The position numbers were made by a program, and so were the translations under genes. Of a DNA stretch of 64,000 nucleotides, positions 1 through 64,000 are shown piece after piece. Position 1 is the stretch's first letter. Each line of letters opens with the position of its first letter. This DNA is from Octopus vulgaris (lineage: Eukaryota): the NCBI GenBank assembly GCA_951406725.2, contig OX597816.1, positions 44,082,001 through 44,146,000 on the forward strand. Reading direction: 5' to 3'. A model generated the notes under the pieces. The model searched no databases. It was not told where the DNA came from and was given only the letters and a program-made list of their open reading frames with translations.

Positions 1-2164
1 TCAGAGGTCACCTTAAGGTAAATAATGCAGTATTCGTTCTTCAAAATATCCACGTAAAATTGGATACAAAGATTATATATTTAGCACTCTTTTTGTACTT
101 TCTATTTGTCTCTACTTTTCGCATAGCAGTATTTTCTGTTATATTTTTTAAATAATACTTTGACTTTGTTCAGGTTTATATATATTGTTAATATTATTGA
201 TGTTTAGTTAGATGCAAAAGTATGCTTTGCGGTTCCATTTCATCTTTGTTATGTTCCTACTCTAACATTATAGATGCTCGTATTCTTTTTATTTAGTGGC
301 CTTCTTCTAAAAGTAAAACTCCACAGGGACACTCTTATGCAGAAAGCTCTTTACTAGTTTCGAACAGCATTAATGCAGCGAATTATTTGGATCAGTGGCA
401 TGATTCAATTGCGTTGATCTATTGCCAATTTTTGTATTGAAGTCACAGGAGACATTGCCATCAATCAGGTAACAATTGTTAACAGATGTGATGGAGAGAA
501 GTGGTTATTTATATTGAATACTTCGGCCAGTATTTTGATTTTAGAAGACATTTCTTAGAAAAACAAGTATATCCCCTAATAGATGAGTGATGGGAATTCT
601 ACAGTGACAGATTATGGGTATTTTCAGTAAGTTATTTCATGAATTTTCCTTTGTTTTAATATTTTCGACATAAACCGTTTATGGGGGCAGCTGAGGTTAG
701 TTACAGTCAATGTTGGAACTACTATAGAACTGTATCTGCTACGCGATACAATATATGTCTTAGCTCGTCATCGACCATACGGTTAGATACAGACTCAAAG
801 TTAGGCCTTCTGCCTACATTAGAGTTACGCCTTCTTATATTATAATTCTTTATATTTATATCTCCTCTCTGCGTTATCAGCATAGATTCACAAGTAATTC
901 CAAGACTTTGCCTCAACTCTGATGTCAGTTATTCTTTTTATTACATTATGCCCATTACTTTTACCATTTATGAACATGCGTTGTTTGCTCAATGGTCTAA
1001 TGCATTCTTTCTCAACGTTGTACGTTAGATTCCTCTCTTATGAGGATCGGCTTACAGCAAGATGTAAATATATAATGTTTCTTGATTTGAAAAACAAATA
1101 ATCAACAGATTAAGCTTTGAGAAATAACAAATTAAAAGGAAACTGTATTTCGTTTCGATAGAACATAGCCCATTGGGGAAAAAAACTGTTTCGTCGTTAG
1201 CAATTTTTATGAAATGAAATTCAATTAAAATTCTATTTTTGTAGGTTTGCACAGTTGAAATTAACGACTGTTTGACCAGAGCAAAAATATTTAATTGCAC
1301 ACACATATATATATATATATATGTTCGCATACACTCACATACAAAGACACAAACAAACATATATTGTGAATCAAATAAAAGAAAATATCTTAATATAAAA
1401 ATTTAAAATATTTTGTATGCATGCAAATACCGTGCCTAATCAAATTTCCTTCCTTCAAATAGAAACCAATCTCAGGTGTATGTGGAAAGGAGACAAAAGC
1501 CTTCCGGTTCAGTAAAACACTTCTGTTTGAAATAGCAATAGCAAATATAGTTTGTGTGAGGTGTCGCATTATAATATCACAACCGCTAATGACAAAATTA
1601 ATTCTATGCAGAAAGTGGGTTATCTGTAACATAGGCATGGAAGAACTACTAATGGCTATGATCTATTTAAAGTATAATGTAAAATTTCTTGATACAATTT
1701 CAAATTGACAATCATTGTAATATGATATTTACTTGTGGTAGGACGGCTGCTGAAACAAGACGTTCAAGATGTTAATTTGAAAAATATAATTTTATTCAAG
1801 TGCATATATTATGTAACCAGATGAGGTTTTTTTCTGGACTGTAGGGTGCAATCAATTCCGTTATATCGTTCGCCATCCTCTAGAGAGAAGTGCAGATGTA
1901 AGCCGAAATGATCGTCGTGCCAAATAAAGCTTACACTACGCTCTGTCTTATCTATCAAATATTTAAAATATACTAAACGTGCACCGAGGAATTCCTTACG
2001 CAGATCCTACGAATAAAGTGCCGTACTGCTGGTAGCCGTATGCGGTAAATGTGCCAAGAGGTTTCACTCTCCGTGCTTTAGCTTCGTTACTATGGCAACA
2101 GTCCGGATGCCTATTGATTAGACCACGTCCAAATACGCCAGCTAAACTTGTTGTACTGTTTATT

Positions 2165-2461
2165 AGTCGTAAGACACCCACTGTTTTTTCCCTGTTTTTA
2201 CCATTATTGGTTTTTGTATTTTATATTTGTGTGGCATCGTCCGCTTTTCTGTCCCTGTTTCGTATACATTCGATCCTTCTTCCAAGAAATCTAATGCTCG
2301 TAGCTTAGTTTTTCCTTGGGGCTAGCCGGATCGGAGCGATCTCAAGATTAATCAGCCGAAATTGCTAGGATGATCCGGTTCTTGACTGAAGATTGAAGGC
2401 ATCCGTGTTTTTTGTATCGTCTTCTAAATGTTTTATGTTCTTGTCCCAGTTTGTATTTTTC

Positions 2462-2465
<4 letters not shown>
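2165..2465 (+). mobile_element. Non-coding (TA)n-anchored element (family P1) with structured hammerhead-like module
   Basis: Homologous to 56200-56536(-) and 21548-21690(-): CAGCCGAAATTGC...GACTGAAGATTGAAGGC. The 3' end abuts (TA)n at 2466-2508. Confidence 0.65.
2335..2400 (+). ncRNA. Candidate hammerhead with scrambled strand order
   Basis: AGCGAT-C-TCAAGA (2335-47), GAAA-TTGCT (2358-66), TCTTGA-CTGAAGA (2380-92). Pairings covary with the 56.3 kb copy. Confidence 0.45.
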
Positions 2466-2510
<45 letters not shown>

Positions 2511-2569
2511 GCTGAAACAATGCTATTTGCAAAAGATAATACAAGTCGATGGTTTGTACCTTTCTTAGT

Positions 2570-2609
2570 ATTATAATATTTCGAGATTAGGACACCTTCT
2601 ACAGGAAAT
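2570..2609 (-). ncRNA. Weak, decayed type I hammerhead-like motif
   Basis: Minus strand reads CTGTAGA-A-GGTGTCCTAATCTC-GAAA-TA-TT. Stems are poor; the sequence runs into (TA)n at 2508. Confidence 0.25.
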
Positions 2610-3079
2610 GTTCGGAGACGTGCTGTTGAAAGCTGACTACACTGTTCTGATAAAAGAACACACCATCGACTGCACTTGCCTTGTTTCTTATAACCTGCAT
2701 TATTTTGGCTTTATGAAAAAATTCAATAGCGTAATATATATCATACATTTCATGCAGACTATACTACTCTCTTTCTAATATCCTTCATTATAAATGAGCA
2801 ATGCAGGTATCACTTGCATAGTTTTGAGATTGCCTCCGATATCCGTCGCTCATGTCACTTCGTACTGTCGCAGTTAGAAATGCAACTATTTGCTTCCCAA
2901 ATACTTGAAAATGAGAGCAAAAAACCAGCCACAGACGCAAATTAACACGCAGGCGTGAATGATCTCATAAGCATGCACCATGCTTTTTATAATTACTTTA
3001 GATGGCCATACGATCACGATCACAGATAGCCATTTTCTCTCGAATGCCTTACCCTTTTCCAGCGAACGTCTAATATAGG

Positions 3080-3250
3080 GAGAGAAGAATATCAGTAGCA
3101 TTTAGCTATTACTCATTTTCAGCTGAGCTCACTGGAGCAACATGAAATGAAGCACCTTGCTGAAGGCTACAGTGCACCGAGCGAGCCGGAAACAGAGTTC
3201 TTGATGTAATGATTGTAAGATCAACAGGGTAACGTCTTGGCAATGAACAT
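3080..3250 (-). mobile_element. Degenerate tRNA-SINE (family C/E-like)
   Basis: ctcattttcagctgag..actggagcaacatgaaatgaag matches the reverse complement of the family C/E central domain. Confidence 0.55.
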
Positions 3251-3499
3251 TCACATTTAATAGAAATAAGACAGATCTATATTTAAGATTATTTTTAGTA
3301 GTTTAATAAAATGTTGTTGCAGTATAACAATATAAAATGACTAGTATAACAATTCTACAATTTCTGAAGGTCACCTATAAAAAAGGAAAAGAAAAAAAAA
3401 ACTTCGGCCGTCCTCATTCTGGAGTGATAAAAAGAATGCACGGGTTTGCCACAAGGTCTTACCAAATTAAAATATCTTCTGTGACAGTTTCGTTTATAT

Positions 3500-3970
3500 T
3501 AGAAGCTTACTACTCAAATACAAGGTTTCAGGTTCAGTCACACTCGTGGAACATTGGGCAAGTGTTTTCTAGTATGGCTCCTGGGCCGACCACAGCCTTG
3601 TGAATGGTACTGGTTGAGGGAAACTGAAAAAAGCTGATCGTGTGTATGTGTGTGCGTGTCTGTGTTTATGTGTGTGAGTGTGTGTCTATGTGTGTGTATG
3701 TGTGTGTGCGTACTTCTGTGCTTGAGTGTTGTGTATGTGTGTGCGCGTGTGTGCGTCCTTATGTTTGTGTTTGACTCCCACTACTGTTTGGCAACTGGTA
3801 TTGATGTGTTTATATCGCCATAATAGTGGTTCGGTAAAATAGCGATTGGCAGAGTAAGAACTAAATTTAAAAAGGTAAGTACTGAGGACGACTTGTTTCA
3901 TTAAACCCTTCAAGCTAAGGCCTCAGTATGGCCTTGATCCAATGACTAAAACAAACAAAAAAAGATGAAA
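3500..3970 (+). mobile_element. Degenerate tRNA-SINE family A
   Basis: ttgggcaagtgttttct...gggccgacc...gaaactgaaa, internal (TG)n, 3' aatgactaaaacaa. Confidence 0.8.
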
Positions 3971-5894: not shown

Positions 5895-6540
5895 CAATCA
5901 ACACATGTTTGGCAACCAGTTAAATGCTTGGTTATTCTGATAACAAGAATCTGGAGTTCTGAAACTGATGAACTCTTTGAACGCACTTTCAGCGTTGGTT
6001 TGATTTTTGAACTCTTCTCGCAAGAAACCATAAAGGTTCATGAAAAATTGGTAGCTGGTTGTGTAATGGTCTGGGGGATACGCTGGGTAGGGAAGAACCT
6101 CGTGAACAAGTTCCTTCAACTTCCGGAGCGTCATTACTGAACCGTGTGGTCGAGCATTGTCATGAAGAATGGTTAGCCCTCTTCTGTTGACCAGTCTGGG
6201 ACGGAGGAGCAGCAGTATTTCCTTCATGTCGGTAATTTTATGGCAATATGTTTCTGTAGTAATGGTTTTTCCGGGTTTTACACAGTTATAGTGGATGAGA
6301 CCAGCAGTACACCTCCAAACAATCACCATAAATTTCTTTCTGAAGAGCTCGGATTTAGGCAAGGTTTCTGGTACTTCATTTGTGTAGAATGTCTTTTTTA
6401 TTATTATGCAGAATCCACTTTTCATCGCAAGTTACGACGAAGAAGCGACGAATAAATTTCATATATGTGCATTTTCTGATTTTCATTTGTCGAGAGTTTT
6501 TGATTTTCCAATCAAATGCAAATGGTAGCAGGTAGTTTTC
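5895..6540 (-). pseudogene. Decayed mariner (D,D34D-type) transposase
   Basis: ORF 5898-6425 has KKFMVIVW..GLIHY..KPGKTIT, LHDNARPH and PYPAYPPDH (a degenerate HPPYSPDLAP). Upstream HLHLIGKSK fragment. Confidence 0.9.
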
Positions 6541-14965: not shown

Positions 14966-16258
14966 TTTTTTTTCTTCTTTCAAATTTGCTTCCATTTCTT
15001 GCCGAGTGTCTTCCCGACTCCTAGGGCAAAGAAACTCATAGTATACATTGGTAGGCCATTAAACCAAACTCAATAGTTCGTTCATTTTTTTAATTTTTTT
15101 TAAAGTTAAATTAAAATACATGAGCAGCAATAGTTCTCACATCGACAATGCTCTTCTCAATACGTGTGATGTACCAGTTAAGACAATCTTTTGCATTTCT
15201 TGCAGGGATGGTAAGCCAGGGATCATTTTCATATAATTTTCGGTTCCCTTCTTGATCATTCCTAGTGCTCCTACGATCACTGGTATTGTAACCGCCTTGA
15301 GATGCCACATTTTCTCAATTTCAATGAGTAGGTCTTTATATTTTCTGAGCTTGTCAAACTCTTTCGCTGAGATATTATGACCACAGGGGGTGCTCATGTC
15401 GATCAATAAGCAAACTTTATTGTTTTGGTCTTTCACAACAATATCTGGTTTATTGGCCTTGATGGTTCGGTCTGTATGTACTGGAAAGTCCCACAGAATC
15501 GTTACATTTTCTCCTTCAGTTACAGCCTCAGGGTGGTGATTATACCACTTGTCAGCAGTTTTGATATTCTAATGCCGACTTATTAGCCAGTGTAGATATT
15601 GGCCAACTCTGTCATGTCTTAATTTATACTCCACTGGTGCTAAGACTTTACATCCAGAGATTAGGTGGTCCACTGTTTCAATCATGTCGTTGCAGAATCG
15701 GCATTTTGGGTCTGCTCCATTTTTCATCACATTGGCCTGGTAGTTCCGGGTTAATAGGCTTTGATCTTGAGCAGCCAGGATGAAACCTTCGCTCTCTGCT
15801 TTTAGCCCTGAGCTCCGTAGCCACTGATGGGTTTGCTTCTGGTCAACATCAGCTTGTTTGCTGCGGGCCACATATTTGCCATGCAGAGGTTTCTCCTCCC
15901 ACCTATCAGCCAATTGCTCGTGCGCTTTTTTCATTGCCATTATTTTCACCTTCTTTGCAACAATAGTTGCCGTACTTCCCTCGGGTTGTTCAGTTTGGGT
16001 ATCCTGCACGAGATCAATAGCAATTGCTTTCCTTTATGATAGAATGAAGCTTCTTTCGTCTCTCGTGATTTTCCACGAGCTTTAGCATCCTGTCATTCGT
16101 TATTTCGAGATATTTGGCAAGTCCAATTGTGGTTGTTTTGTAAGCTAGTTTAAATTGGATCAGGCCTCGACCTCCTTGGGCTCTGGGAAGGAAAAGGCGA
16201 TCTACGCCTGCCTTTGGGTGGTGCATCCTATTACAACTCAGCAGCTTGCGTATTTTCC
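14965..16258 (-). mobile_element. 5'-truncated R4/Dong-clade non-LTR retrotransposon (thumb, CCHC knuckle, restriction-like endonuclease, 3'UTR)
   Basis: HPKAGVDRLFLPRAQGGRGL; CRFC..ETVDHLISGC; RHDRVG; KPDIVV..LIDMS..K..KY. Broken by a frameshift and a stop; (TTA)n on both sides. Confidence 0.92.
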
Positions 16259-16272
16259 TATTATTATTATTA

Positions 16273-16338
<66 letters not shown>

Positions 16339-16339
<1 letters not shown>

Positions 16340-16600
16340 TTTTTTTTTTCTTCTTTCAAATTTGCTTCCATTTCTTGCCGAGTGTCTTCCCGACTCCTAG
16401 GGCAAAGAAACTCATAGTATACATTGGTAGGCCATTAAACCAAACTCAGTAGTTCATTATTTTAATTTTTTTTTAAAGTTAAATTAAAATACATGAGCAG
16501 CAACAGTTCTCACATTGACAATGCTCTTCTCAATACGTGTGATGTACCAGTTAAGACAATCTTTTGCACTTCTTGCAGGGATGGTAAGCCAGGGATCATT

Positions 16601-20456: not shown

Positions 20457-20922
<466 letters not shown>

Positions 20923-25715: not shown

Positions 25716-26028
25716 TAACTTATAAATAAGGGCAAACGAAAAAATATCTAGTGCCAAATATGCCGAAAATTGGACATATTGTCCATTACCATATCATTTT
25801 TCACAATACGCATGCTACTCGAAAAAAAGCCGACAGAGTAGCGTGCGTATTGTGAAAAGTTATATGGTAATGGACAATATGTCAAATTTTCGGTATATTT
25901 GGCATTAGAAATTATTTCGTTTGCCCTTATTTATAAGTTATTAATAATTTTAACATTTAAAGGTATTTTTAATATGCTGGCCATTGATAAAACTTTTTTT
26001 TTTCTAAACAAATTTTATCCTACATTAA
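25716..26028 (+). mobile_element. Fold-back family P2 fragment between (TA)n tracts
   Basis: Inverted arms 25716-25820 and 25836-25940, plus an unpaired tail to 26028. Confidence 0.85.
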
Positions 26029-26044
26029 ATATATATATATACAT

Positions 26045-26290
26045 ATATATATAGAAAATAGTAAAGAGTGAAAAAACGACAGAAGGCTTAAATGTTAAAA
26101 AATATATATATTTGCGTCAATATGTCTGAAGAATATTAGAAAATTTTTTTTTTTATTTTCTAATATTCTTCAGACATATTGACGCAAATATATATATATA
26201 TATTTTAACATTTAAGCCTTCTGTCGTTTTTTCACTCTTTACTATTTTCTATATATTCACCCACGTGCTTTCACAAACCAACTTTCTTAT
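26045..26290 (+). mobile_element. Fold-back element: near-perfect 100 bp hairpin plus tail of about 35 nt, in (TA)n
   Basis: Arms 26045-26144 and 26155-26256 with a T-run loop. Confidence 0.85.
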
Positions 26291-36120: not shown

Positions 36121-36310
36121 GGATAGCATTTTTTCCGATTGCCGGATAACTGAAGAGATGGCGGTGTGGATTTCCACCCCGACATCTGAAACTCGGAGTT
36201 TTATCATGGCTACCGAATAAGTGTCATATATTACATTTACATATAAATTTCTCTGTTTACTTAATATCGAGGTATCTTTCATTCTTATGTTGTCTTACCA
36301 TTTCTATCAA
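36121..36310 (+). mobile_element. (TA)n-anchored hammerhead element family P4
   Basis: Tail homologous to 40255-40336; ends in (TA)n. Confidence 0.75.
36141..36210 (+). ncRNA. Type I hammerhead ribozyme, near-intact
   Basis: GCCG-GATAA-CTGAAGA(36150-56)-GATG.CGG.GTGGA/TCCAC.CCG.CATC-T-GAAA(36188-91)-CTCGGAG-TT|TTATC-a-TGGC. Confidence 0.85.
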
Positions 36311-39858: not shown

Positions 39859-39953
39859 AAACGACAGACTATGCTGATGATCTTGCAGATGTTCGCGTAT
39901 ACATATACGTGAATATTAACAAATGAAACTGATTAGTACATAGGTAATCGTTT
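39859..39953 (+). ncRNA. Extended type I hammerhead ribozyme
   Basis: AAACGA-caga-CTATG-CTGATGA(39874-80)-long stem II (GATGTTCGCGTAT/ATACGTGAATATT)-GAAA(39925-28)-CTGATTAG-TA|CATAG-gtaa-TCGTTT. Confidence 0.85.
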
Positions 39954-40246: not shown

Positions 40247-40333
40247 AATATGTTACATTATTGTATAGATAAATTTCCTCTATTTACATAACATTGAGGT
40301 CTCTTTCTTTCTTTTGTTATCTTACCGTTTTAT

Positions 40334-40336
<3 letters not shown>
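40241..40336 (+). mobile_element. Family P4 tail with a short inverted 5' stub, in (TA)n
   Basis: TACAATAAT..ATTATTGTA stub; remainder matches 36240-36310. Confidence 0.7.
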
Positions 40337-58288: not shown

Positions 58289-58946
58289 TCAATAAAGATT
58301 CTTGTGTATTCCTTATATCTGCATATATATTTATATATGTACGTGTGTGTATATGTGTGTGTGCATGCATATGCATCTGTGTGTGCATGTGTGTGTGTGT
58401 GTATGTATGTAGGTGGATAGGTAGTTGTGCATAATACATGTGCGTATCTATAAATGTACTTGTGTGCCCGTGTAACGTGCCTATTTGGGGATCAATTTGG
58501 ATTATTGCCACATTAATTTCGAGGCCTACGTATTTGGTGACCTAATTAGGAGACCTAAATTTAAACAAAAAAATGTAAATTTTTTGTTCTAAAATCTTTC
58601 GTTGTTTTGTGGTTTACAATTGGCGAGCGTAAGATAACAGTCATCTTCACATAGGCCTCCTAGGTCCCTTGTTATAGAGAGGACGGCAACTTGTGAGATC
58701 ACGAATTTCAGCCGAGCTGCTAACGCCCATTCTAACATCATAATGAATACTAGCCTGCTTCTTAATCTATTTTGAATTGTTTTGCTTCATGAAAGTTTAG
58801 CAAGGAAGTGGGAGGATTTGAATTTATTGAGTTGAGGTTCAGTGTTTCTGCAAAATCTAATGCGCTGTGGGGCCAAGTTTGGTAATGGAAGTGTAATTGC
58901 TATTGATATCCAACTGGAAAAACACTAAACTCTCGTTATATGCCAT

Positions 58947-59738
58947 GTAATTAACTGTAATTCTTATACACTCAAATGTATTGCTCGCGTACAAACAGTG
59001 TGCTTTAATATAATGTTTATCGTGGTTTTGGACTTTGACTGTCATTGTTAGCATGTAAGAAATCCACACGCTGGTTTTCTCTCCGTGTATGTTTCATACA
59101 CTATTATATTTTAAAATATTCATGTTTTCTGACCTTTATTACGCATGCTAACCACCGGTATGAATTATTTCATAATCTTTACCTTTGTATTTATAATGAT
59201 AAATATTTAAATTCTTAGACCGTGTAGTATATGATTGAATTTATTCACTGCTATAATACTCTGGTTTTGCACGTTGGTTTGAGGGCATTCGATTTGAATT
59301 CTTGATGTATAGAGATGGAACTGAATGCACATGTCTTTACTTTGTATTTTCGGTACACATTGTAGTCTCATATTTATACATTTTACAGCGACCTTACTGA
59401 CGAGCTACGGATGACTAATTGATCAATTAATTAAATTATTGCTTGATTTATTTGGTCATTAATCGTGAAAATCTTGAGTATAAGGTTAACTGAATTTTTT
59501 ATTCACTCAAATGTCTTGCTCGCGTACAAACAGCCTGCTTTAATATAAGAACGTCTTTTTCATGGTTTTGAGCTTTGACTGCCACTTTTAACATGTAAGA
59601 AATCCACATGGTGGTTTTCTCTCTATGTATATTTCATACACTATTATATTTTAAAATATTATCTCTTCTGACTTTTATTACACATGATAATTACCAGCAT
59701 AAATTATTTCATAATTATTACTCTTGTATTTATAGAGT
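58947..59738 (+). mobile_element. Partial-tandem (about 1.5 units) hammerhead element, retrozyme/pLTR-like
   Basis: Direct repeats 58951-59195 and 59486-59734 (period about 535 bp); HHR at the unit junction; ends in (TA)n. Confidence 0.78.
59391..59486 (+). ncRNA. Type I hammerhead
   Basis: ACCTTA-CTGACGA(59397-403)-gctACG.ATGACTAA...TTGGTCAT..CGT-GAAA(59467-70)-ATCTTGAG-TA|TAAGGT. Confidence 0.75.
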
Positions 59739-60579
59739 TATATATATATATATATATATGTGTGGGGCGTATGTCTGTTTGCTTGTGTATGCATGAGAGT
59801 AATTGTGTGCACATATGTATGCTACATGCAAGTGTAAGCATTCCAAGTCACGGATATTTATAATTCTATTATCAAAAATAACAATATCCAACACTGAAAA
59901 TAGACTGGCTATGAACGAAATCTATATAATTCATTAGGCACAAAAGTAGAATTATGGTGACAAAGAAATTATGACGGTAACAGCACGCCATATTGTCTAA
60001 ATATAACGATGTAATTGTATTTCAGTAATATACAGCTGATTTAAGTCAATTTGGTTTTTATTGCTAGTATGAAATCAAATGTTGTTCGTGAACGAGGCAT
60101 TATAATTGTTTTATTTATTTTTTTTTTTTTTCATGAAATGTTCTCAGTTAAAGAAAAATCTGATTTCTCCTGAAATACTTTTCGTTTGGGACTTGCGATA
60201 TAATTTCTGAATTATTTTCTAAAACACGTAAGCTTTTGAACACACATAAACACAGGTGAGGAACATTGTAAAGTTTATCTCTGGAGTGTTAAGATGATAT
60301 TCTCTGCCTATACTCTTTGTAAAACATAGTTTTGAACTATATATTTTCCGTTCGTTATTATACGTCTTTTACAATTACATGTAAACCAATGGTAACTGAA
60401 TTCATTGTTGAACACAAATTTCTATCATTCAAAGCATAACAATCTATCTGAGAAATTTCGGTAAATATATCTAAAATTACGATTTGGTTTCTAATTTACA
60501 TCGATGTTCGAAATCTGGGTGATGTGTATTTTCGATCAACTCAGCGTATACATATTTTAACGTACTCAGTATAATTAAA

Positions 60580-61220
60580 ATTATGTTATGATAAATAGCA
60601 ATGCACAGAATGGTCGACTGCAGGGAACAAGTAATCATTTACATAAGACTAGAAATTTTGAGTGGGAGAGCGAATCGCAAAGCATTTTGACCGACTCGTT
60701 AAAGATTCGTACAGCTTGCCACCTTACAATAAAGAATAATATTAACACTATAAATAAAAAAAAATACAACAGTATTTTGAATATTTCTATCTGCATAAGA
60801 CACAGGTGCCCTCCCAACACAGATGCAGAGAAAAATACAGGCGCATGCAAAGAGATGCTAGAGCAAAATTTTACGTATCACTATGTTGTGCCGCATTAAA
60901 AACGAACTGGAACATAAAACCGCGAAGGATCAGCGTGATTCTTAAGTCTTCCCCATAACAACGACAAAAAGAGAACTTAGATGGCATGGCCACATGAGAA
61001 GACCAAAGGGTCTTACAATAACTATTCTACAAGGAATTGTGGATTAGTAAAAACGGGGCGATAGATAGAGTGAATAATGTTCTGAAAACATGACGAAATT
61101 GAAATGCAGAACAATAACTGAGATTGGAACTCTGGTAGACAGCTGAAATTTGGAGAAGTTTGTTGTACTGAGTATCACGACAATACCCCCACGTCACCAC
61201 CAAGATTTAAGTGAAATGAA
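60580..61220 (+). pseudogene. RTE-clade LINE 3' ORF remnant
   Basis: Manual translation IFLSA*DTGALPTQMQRKIQAHAKRC*SKILRI..RIKNE..KRELRWHGHMRRPKGLTITILQGIV matches RTE/BovB C-terminal motifs. Confidence 0.75.
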
Positions 61221-62119
61221 TACTGATACATAATATGTGTTGTTAGCAAGTGCAATCCTTTAGCAGTTCTGCTAAGAAATATGTAATTTTGTCACAAAGT
61301 GAAAGCATTTGATGGACAAGTATATTGGCGAAATAGAACAAAGTATTCCAGCATAATGTTTTTAATTGATCTTGGAATAATGAAAGACAAAATCAACCGG
61401 AAGAACGCTTAAGATCAGAAAGTAAAGGAATATTAGTAAATGTCGCAAGATATTTTCAATATTGTACTTTACCAACTCACTAACGTCTATAATTATTTTC
61501 AATTCTACAGACACTCCAGATGAGTAGAATATATTTAGTGAACCACTTGGTCTCTCAGCCTTCTAAGAAGAGCATCGAAATATTCCTCTAAGCATACTTG
61601 TCCGCTTTTAAAAAATGACGCGTTTGTTAATGAAGTCCTCAGAACACTATATTTGAAGATAGCAAGAGATGGTCATGGCTGAAACGCTTCTAATTAAACG
61701 ACTATTCGGTCAAAAAATATCTATTTTTTAATTATTCCATCTTTATACTAGTGAATAACTCACGAATTCTAAGCTATTGATTGTTGAATATTTAATTATT
61801 GATTACTTTTGAATCTTAAAATACTTCATCAAACATTCTAATTAGGATATAATTAACATGAAACCGCTGGTGGTAAGTTGTTCTTTTTTTTTTAGTTTAG
61901 TCAAAATTAATTGAATAATTTTGATACAATGTGTGTTCACAAATAATTATAAAATCTGTGAAATTTAACTTAGTTGCCATGATCACAATTGTATGTGTTT
62001 GTAGCATGATTTTGACGAAACATCAATAGGAATTATTTTGACCCTCATCAGCTCTAATCGAGCAGACACATGATCAAATTCGTTCCTGTTGTGATAATTT
62101 CGTATTTTTTATAGTCGGC

Positions 62120-62762
62120 GATAGCATTGACTGAGGAGACGCAGTTCTATCGAAACGCTGGTTATATTAACTCCTCATATTCCAACGAATCGAGTGCTAT
62201 GAACATAAATTTGTCTGGAACGAGAAGTTGTTCTATATTGACGAAACATAACACAAAAAAGATTTACATATTCATGTTCAAATCTGCTGGATTGTATTAG
62301 GTATGAATACATAAGCCATCATTTTAATGATCGTCGATCATTGCACATATGAAAATTCATTTTCGATCGAAAGAAATCGGCATGCATCATTAAGTAATTC
62401 CATTTCTGAAGTTAGATTCATTACCTTATGCAGCTTCGACTGAGGGGAAACAACGATATTGAAACACCGGGGCTCATGAAGAATGAACATTTAAGTCAAC
62501 ATCGTTAGATATAATGCTGCATACTGAATATTTAAAATAAATTATGTTTTTTGTTTAGAAATTTCTGTCGGCTTAGTTCGAGACGCGTGTTCATAGTGAT
62601 AAATTAGATGGTTATTGACAATTTGTCTATTTTCGGCATATTTGGCATTAGAATATTTTTCTTTTGCCCTCGTTTATAAGTTGTTTATAAATTTAACCTT
62701 TAAAGGTATTTTTTAATATACTGGTCATTGATAAATTTTTTTTCGAAAACTTTTGTCCTATA
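62120..62762 (+). mobile_element. Family P2 element with two decayed tandem hammerhead-like motifs
   Basis: CTGAGGA-GA..TC-GAAA-CGCTGG-TT (62131-63) and CTTCG-A-CTGAGGG..GAAA-CACCGGGGC-TC-A-TGAAG (62434-81); P2 tail at 62565-62762. Confidence 0.55.
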
Positions 62763-62773
62763 TTATATATATA

Positions 62774-64000
62774 CAGTTGCGGCCAAAATGTTCAGAACGA
62801 AATTGTTTTCGTCAGAAAAGTAAGTATAAGTTTTTACCAAAGTAGTTTTATATTCTAGACATACAATATTAATTGTTATTGTCTGAGATTTTGGTGTAAT
62901 TTGAGAGGATACTACAAAAGTTATGGATGATTTAGTGATTTACTGCAAAACCCATGGCGGCCAAAATGATCAGAACGGTTGAAAATATAAAAAAGATAAT
63001 CAAAAATTACAGAGAATACTGGAATTATTTAATATTTAGTGTGAAGCCCTTTAGCTTCAATCACACTCTGACATCTTCGACTGCATGAGGAAATTAAATT
63101 TTCAATTTCTTGCTGGGTTATCTTATTCCATTCTTCCTGAAGGGCTTTCCATAATTGCTCAGTTGTTGTAGGATTTCTGGCTTTCAAACGTTCTCCTAGA
63201 ATATTCCATACATTTTCAATAGGATTGAGATCTGGGCTTTGAGCAGGCCAATCCATAACAATAACCTTTTCAGCCTTGAGGAAGTTCATGACCACCTTAG
63301 CCTTGTGACATGGGGCATTGTCTTGCATGAATATGGGTGAATTTCTCAGCACAGGCAAGACATGATCTTTTACAAGTTGTTTATAAACTCCTGCATTTAC
63401 CTTTCCATGTAATCGCACCAAAGGGCCCACACCATCTCCAGATATCATCCCCCAAATCATGACACTTCCTCCACCGAATTTAACACTAGTCATAAGGCAT
63501 TTAGGTGACAATTTTTCACCTACTTTTCTACGAACGTACCTTTTCCCATCTGAGCCAAATAACATGAACTTAGATTCATCACTGAAATGCACCGTTTGCC
63601 ATTTTTCTTGAGACCACTACACATGTTTGGTTGCAAAGGTAAGACGACACTTTTTATTCTTGGAGCTGATCAGTGGCTTCACTGCAGGTACTCTTGCTTG
63701 TAGGTCATGTTCAACTAAACGACGAGACACAGGTTTTCGAGATAAATTTTTCTTCAATACAGTGCTCTTTTTCCGAGAAACAGCAGCAGCAGTTTTAAAT
63801 CTGTCCTTTTTAACCAACTTTACCATAGCACGATCTTCTCTCTTGGTCGTTTTTTCTTGGCCTACCTGTAAACTTTCTTGCTTCACACGAACCACAATCA
63901 TCGTAGACCTTAAGAATACCGTGTACAACACTTTTTGACTTGTTAACAATCTTTGCAATAGATCCAATACTTAAATTATCCTTCCTTCGAAGCTTAATAA
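62774..64000 (-). mobile_element. Tc1-family DNA transposon, IR-DR type, continuing past the window end
   Basis: TA then CAGTTGCGGCCAAAATGTTCAGAACG terminus; inner repeat GCGGCCAAAATGATCAGAACG at 62957-62977. Confidence 0.92.
63029..63967 (-). pseudogene. Tc1 DD34E transposase, frameshifted
   Basis: HFSDESKF, FMQDNAPCH, SPDLNPIENVW with 34 residues between D and E. The N-terminal part lies in the separate ORF 63617-63967. Confidence 0.93.

Follow-up and report, generated by a model that had tools for sequence, protein, structure and literature searches.

A 1.5-unit hammerhead repeat, very probably of non-autonomous Penelope-like type, in the Octopus vulgaris genome

Positions 58951–59759 of the analysed window, a stretch of 64,000 nucleotides of Octopus vulgaris DNA, hold a feature of about 790 nt in which 1.5 copies of a 535–540-nt unit are joined at a hammerhead motif; the sequence is non-coding. 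The unit belongs to a dispersed, replicating family with many copies. With high confidence we assign the element to the non-autonomous Penelope-like (PLE) type. In the broad sense it is a member of the animal non-LTR retrozyme class, and it is not an autonomous PLE. For its origin we lean towards an old copy of a PLE-mobilised hammerhead family, the 5′ end of which would stem from a cut linear template, with no circle needed. The feature is composed as follows:

58951–59195, + strand: segment A, upstream partial copy (pseudo-LTR equivalent), by blastn and alignment
59196–59389, + strand: segment B, non-coding unit body, multicopy, spaced alike in X1 record 2 and X5 records 25–27
59390–59487, + strand: type I hammerhead motif, probably decayed, by descriptor search, folding and shuffles
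59486–59738, + strand: segment A′, downstream copy that extends to the family's long 3′ end, 258 nt past the cut, by alignment
59739–59759, no strand: (TA)n run of the 3′ junction, into which the element was likely inserted, by sequence

By blastn, 58951–59212 matches 59486–59751 with 82.4% identity over 267 columns (E 6e-73). Without the (TA)n, 58951–59195 and 59486–59734 are identical in 209 of 244 columns (86%), with 23 transitions and 12 transversions (K2P 0.16), and the alignment score of 295 compares with a shuffle maximum of 31 (n=300). The offset from A to A′ is 535 at the 5′ end and 539–540 beyond, so that the array comprises about 1.47 units. The 1.5-mer repeat that a first-pass annotation had read from the letters is thus real, and its unit length of about 535 nt is borne out. 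The GC content of the unit is 0.31. Its longest stop-free frame has 65 codons, and a Pfam search of 58420–62000 in six frames, read through stops, gave a best E of 0.077 and neither a reverse transcriptase (RT) nor a GIY-YIG domain. The unit was therefore rightly called non-coding, and an ORF remnant inside B, found neither in the frame nor in the Pfam searches, is ruled out. A tRNA-derived SINE head can be dismissed as well, as ARAGORN finds no tRNA in the window.

The array also ends in (TA)n as annotated: a TA run of 21 nt (59739–59759) directly follows A′. There are 63 TA runs in the window, and the chance of one starting within 10 nt of the end of A′ is about 1%. Where animal non-LTR retrozymes have a target-site duplication, it is longer than 4 bp; a 7-nt match at 58935 and 59737 is not convincing as one, lying 9 nt off the 5′ end and overlapping the TA run. 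Beyond A and A′, no further copies of A or B occur within the 64-kb window, the sequence of which is AT-rich and dense in microsatellites.

At the other end, 10-nt blocks upstream of 58951, compared in register, match in only 0–4 of 10 positions, so no ribozyme 5′ half stands ahead of A. The best alignment of A and A′ begins five nucleotides past the cut (58951 = 59486), and, judging from the letters, a 2-nt gap would bring the start of A right onto the cut (58948 = 59481). Homology thus begins 0–5 nt past the predicted cut position and does not reach upstream of it; in both respects, as in the missing 5′ half, the observation agrees with the first-pass annotation, which had named upstream homology as the evidence that would speak against it.

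The hammerhead motif consists of a 7-bp stem I (59390–59396 / 59481–59487), CUGACGA (59397–59403), a long, AU-rich stem II of 63 nt (59404–59466), GAAA (59467–59470), a short near-palindromic stem III (59470–59479) and GUA; cleavage is predicted to follow A59480. The folding z of the region is −3.9 with none of 200 shuffles equally stable, and a descriptor that requires 7 bp or more in stem I finds this site alone in the window and nothing in 100 shuffles; a chance motif is thereby ruled out. Rfam gave no match at gathering score over the window, and at E up to 10 five weak, unrelated matches and no hammerhead in 58700–60000. The core contains a G.U pair at 10.1–11.1 and an A.G mismatch at 15.2–16.2. 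Relative to the MFE, the active-like fold costs 10.7 kcal/mol more; at two further hammerhead-like sites in the window this difference is 1.2 and 3.8. By these folding predictions, the ribozyme of this copy is probably damaged or disabled. Two contigs of sequencing run X11 carry C at 15.2 together with a palindromic stem III, and one contig has C at 11.1, which makes the weak pairs probably private damage of this locus; these letters come from two copies only, none of the 40 sites listed out of 442 in the site table lying inside the ribozyme. With a single hammerhead at the locus, excision of a monomer is not possible. The lone ribozyme, the weak pairs 10.1–11.1 and 15.2–16.2 and the 14% difference between A and A′ are points absent from the first-pass annotation.

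Just 5′ of helix I, a pyrimidine-rich stretch (59353–59388) ends in ACAG. Its terminal TTTTACAG at 59381–59388 makes the end of B a possible 3′ splice site by analogy with Penelope of D. virilis, for which an intron end is likewise described just before helix I (PMC4209133). The family majority letters at 59357–59358 would form a donor-like motif merely 36 nt upstream of this acceptor candidate.

Other copies of the unit were sought by aligning contigs to 58430–60300 at 80% likeness in 4 of 24 sequencing runs: three DNA runs with different organism labels (X1, X5 and X11, the last being organism D) and one presumed RNA run (X17). The DNA runs yielded 302, 287 and 378 aligned contigs, respectively, and over 58997–59689 their summed contig depth was 11–77 times that of the single-copy flanks (X1: 668–3577 vs. 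55–61; X5: 102–501 vs. 6.4–7.6; X11: 713–3464 vs. 52). Summed depth is not a copy number; distinct contigs, numbering up to 32–42 per site, set a floor of some tens of copies. Other copies, too, contain junctions from A to B and from B to A with unchanged spacing (X1 record 2, 59075–59532; X5 records 25–27), so the ORF-less unit itself was replicated. Joints that go back about 506–536 had looked like candidates for longer arrays and were rejected because the contigs switch there between A and A′. The presumed RNA run gave nine short partial contigs, six of them less than 90% alike, and none of the eight listed crosses the cut; they are counted neither for nor against expression. A pattern scan of metagenomes with the conserved start of A returned no match.

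The present copy is old, differing by about 8% from the family majority. Twelve listed pieces from X1 and X11 differ from this locus by 12–17%, compared with 14% between A and A′. At 10 of 12 top-ranked sites that could be mapped, one copy of A departs while the other holds the family majority letter, and at the remaining two A and A′ have a non-majority letter in common; two additional top-ranked sites lay outside the A/A′ alignment. This pattern fits one old burst followed by a decay of about 8% per copy, A and A′ decaying independently. On the O. vulgaris clock, in which distances of 0.065 and 0.09 are given as 18 and 25 million years (PMC13282606), such a decay would correspond to an age of roughly 20 million years.

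Two 3′ ends about 89 nt apart, both entering (TA)n, may point to the PLE type (24 of 495 loose-end rows were listed). At the short one, loose contig ends enter (TA)n at about 59649, 169 nt past the cut, in seven X1 contigs, and nine X11 contigs have loose ends that enter it after 59631; the agreement is about 0.7 for X1 and X11. The long end is seen in five X5 contigs with loose ends into (TA)n after 59169, equivalent to about 59729, and the present copy extends to 59738. Opposite-strand joints at 59029/59279, 59122/59496 and 59277/59313 are common to X1 and X5 among the 15 of 54 joints listed, and several listed family pieces lose their match inside B at 59235–59248, in keeping with a 5′ truncation that varies between copies. 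PLEs are described as forming partial tandems and inverted copies, with a tail that may or may not be present and a bias towards microsatellites (PMC8557442, PMC3846280). The tail, given as 30–40 nt, corresponds in an Anolis PLE to two internal points at which reverse transcription begins (PMC11167929). Of the two origins that the first-pass annotation had offered, a PLE partial tandem lacking an ORF is thus well supported by the TA-run 3′ ends, the inverted joints, the multicopy family and the missing reading frame.

Compared with the EN+ PLE pseudo-LTR tandems described by Craig et al. 2021 (PMC8557442), Arkhipova et al. 2013 (PMC3846280) and in PMC11167929, the element shares the 5′-truncated copy before a full unit, the hammerhead that lies within the repeat, truncated copies in inverted orientation, AT-rich or microsatellite targets and perhaps the pair of 3′ ends. 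It differs in the lack of an RT/GIY-YIG ORF, in the extension of about 89 instead of 30–40 nt and in 3′ ends that lie 169 and 258 nt past the cut. The ribozyme resembles the PLE hammerhead variants of Cervera and de la Pena 2014 (PMC4209133) in its type I fold, the enlarged helix II, the short palindromic helix III suited to dimer cleavage and the possible intron end 5′ of helix I, whereas the helix II of 63 nt, the G.U at 10.1–11.1 and the A.G at 15.2–16.2 set it apart.

Animal non-LTR retrozymes are interpreted in a 2026 preprint as non-autonomous PLE derivatives with units of 51–972 bp and many dispersed monomers (bioRxiv 10.64898/2026.07.22.740005). As described there by Li, Clavereau and Pollet and by Cervera and de la Pena 2020 (PMC7229834), they share with our element the non-coding, low-GC unit arranged head to tail, its type I hammerhead, dispersed copies of near-monomer size, a proposed PLE mobilisation and a conserved unit length, that of the present unit lying in the range of 51–972 bp. 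Unlike them, the locus contains 1.47 units with one probably decayed ribozyme, and having one hammerhead only, it falls outside what the preprint calls an 'active' retrozyme, namely two consecutive complete hammerheads. Circles of invertebrate retrozymes are described with 170–400 nt, the unit found here being longer with 535–540 nt. The retrozyme monomer is also described as highly self-paired, which the predicted circle of this unit is not, and stem II is here very long and AU-rich.

In the mechanism we favour, reverse transcriptase and GIY-YIG nuclease of a PLE, acting in trans, would copy the element into (TA)n microsatellites. By analogy with Frangieh et al. 2024 (PMC11167929), the PLE protein may nick AT-rich DNA. 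Reverse transcription would then start inside the RNA, 258 nt past the hammerhead in the present case and 169 nt past it in other copies, and run back via the uncut hammerhead and B into the next unit. Here copying would have stopped at the 5′ end of the RNA. Presumably this end arose when a linear transcript of several units was cut at its upstream hammerhead, or it belonged to a cut monomer onto which the copying enzyme had jumped. A linear cut template yields a 1.5-mer that begins at the cut without any circle. Afterwards both copies of A would have decayed independently by about 8% each, and the ribozyme was likely disabled.

A cut-defined 5′ end is likely for this copy, as a minority outcome in the family. 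The depth across the cut exhibits no step in the DNA runs (X1 2090 to 2161; X5 312 to 310; X11 2306 to 1930), so most family copies run through the cut site and a fixed unit from cut to cut, as annotated, is not the rule. The counter-evidence that the annotation had named, other copies lacking a fixed unit, is thus present in part: for the 5′ ends, and not for the unit length, the spacing being kept. Together with the pieces that stop at 59235–59248, inside B, this limits 5′ ends at the cut to at most a minority. Three X11 contigs hint at further 5′ ends at the cut: the last 15 letters of their loose ends agree with the 15 nt that follow it, and the letters before these are unlike the ribozyme. 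Their agreement of 0.78 compares with 0.77–0.79 expected if the upstream half is unrelated; the support amounts to these three contigs, read from the consensus string.

The missing step and the 5′ ends inside B would equally suit a reading in which the same PLE-mobilised family is at work and the 5′ end at the cut is coincidental: the copy would be 5′-truncated in the ordinary way, made from a read-through transcript that stayed uncut, and the hammerhead would have had no share in it. The best alignment beginning at cut+5, in AT-rich sequence, agrees with it, as do four truncated pieces of a sister family (see below) that begin 14–48 nt past their cuts. In the Anolis PLE, hammerhead cleavage was dispensable for insertion in vitro, the main template was uncut RNA, and no RNA reads are reported to end at the cut (PMC11167929). 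These Anolis data, the tail of about 89 vs. 30–40 nt, the sister 5′ ends and the motif going unscored by Rfam count against the mechanism we favour. On the other side, a 5′ end at the cut has a chance of about 1% under uniform truncation (6/535, calculated post hoc), and the three X11 contigs appear to begin at the cut too. On balance we consider plain truncation unlikely, while taking it seriously.

A smaller weight is given to the classical retrozyme cycle, in which a 535–540-nt monomer would be excised from a tandem transcript, circularised and reverse-transcribed for 1.5 rounds by a PLE enzyme. That circularised cut PLE RNA could be the source of inserts of more than one unit was proposed in 2014 (PMC4209133), so the circle mechanism of the first-pass annotation is already a published hypothesis; circles were also demonstrated for retrozymes of coral, mussel and axolotl (PMC7229834). 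Both junction types exist, as circular permutation requires, but a linear multimer yields identical junctions. The two of 12 mapped sites at which A and A′ share a non-majority letter are expected of one template. A circle does not explain why the junction was passed once and then became the stopping point. The predicted circular fold (58946–59480; −105 kcal/mol, 57% paired) is unremarkably paired with z −1.3 in 60 shuffles, a test weakened by the decay of about 8%. No clean 535-nt multimer occurs among the 32 of 1079 pieces listed. As this copy moreover carries a single weak ribozyme, an RNA circle is not supported for this element, and we judge the cycle improbable. Least probable of all is an assembly in two steps, by a second family insertion beside or into the first or by a local DNA duplication of A. 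It would agree with the difference between A and A′, which equals that to other copies, and with the tendency of PLEs to insert beside earlier copies (PMC6765202). Equal distances are, however, predicted by a star-like old burst anyway, and the spacing of A and B is the same in unrelated copies (X1 record 2; X5 records 25–27), so that A–B is native sequence and no junction.

Four hammerhead-like sites, all on the + strand, were found in the 64-kb window vs. 0.06 expected, which suggests that elements of this sort, so far unannotated, make up a sizeable share of the genome. Besides the site at the joint, the following were recorded together with their copies:

20651–20893, + strand: hammerhead-bearing copy of the sister family between two TA runs; the motif, at 20695, is a well-formed type I with its cut after 20743
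25717–25835, − strand: post-cut copy of the sister family, inverted and truncated, 82–87% likeness
25841–26035, + strand: post-cut copy of the sister family, direct, 82–87% likeness
62551–62773, + strand: post-cut copy of the sister family, 82–87% likeness
36143–36310, + strand: hammerhead-like site 36150, the downstream part of which recurs at 40248–40335 (+) with 80%, between two TA runs
39867–39945, + strand: hammerhead-like site 39874, its stem II long and its stem III palindromic, no second copy in the window

In the sister family, the inverted truncated copy abuts the direct one at 25835/25841. Its 3′ ends are also of two kinds, short ones at TA runs (20893, 25717) and long ones about 90 nt further (26035, 62773). 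The short stretch right after its cut resembles that of the family studied here.

Elements of this kind are already known from many animals, and the present family is an additional case. In the literature listings that we searched, no work on retrozymes of cephalopods came up. In the main text of the 2026 repeat annotation of O. vulgaris (PMC13282606), the words ribozyme, hammerhead and retrozyme do not occur, though its supplements may list such motifs. The copy itself is a fossil and unlikely to be of consequence to the host. The role of the hammerhead in PLEs is stated to be unclear (PMC8557442), and the many dispersed copies allow 5′ junctions at the cut to be counted, a cheap test of this role. 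Tentatively, and with more doubt than for the single copy, it may be proposed that hammerhead cleavage sets the template's 5′ end for an entire group of short PLE parasites that target microsatellites in this genome. If so, a measurable share of insertions should have its 5′ end exactly at the cut and its other end at either of two start sites separated by 89 nt. This would provide genomic evidence that PLE hammerheads cut in vivo within the mobility cycle, unlike the one biochemical study, and would make the family the first from a cephalopod available for circle tests.

Several further observations were made in the contigs and in the window. X1 record 6, a contig of 722 nt, contains two pieces bearing the cut site 381 nt apart in an odd alignment, possibly a tandem of this family with a shorter unit or an assembly chimera. 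The X11 cover of the upstream flank (58871–58950) seems to end near 58949. In the same run, the depth at the 3′ end of A′ is that of a single copy (47.6), and none of the 15 joints listed spans the whole element; the stop near 58949 seems to be either an empty site or a contig break. Directly behind the sister-family copy, a near-perfect palindrome of 210 nt (26047–26256) with arms 98–100% complementary is either a foldback element or an assembly artefact. Other mobile elements lie on the − strand: a broken non-LTR retrotransposon end interrupted by (ATT)n (15137–16355), with a weak zf-RVT match below the curated cut-off, a mariner transposase piece (5898–6431, Transposase_1) and a Tc1-type transposase split by a stop (63029–63970, Pfam DDE_3 and HTH_Tnp_Tc3_2).
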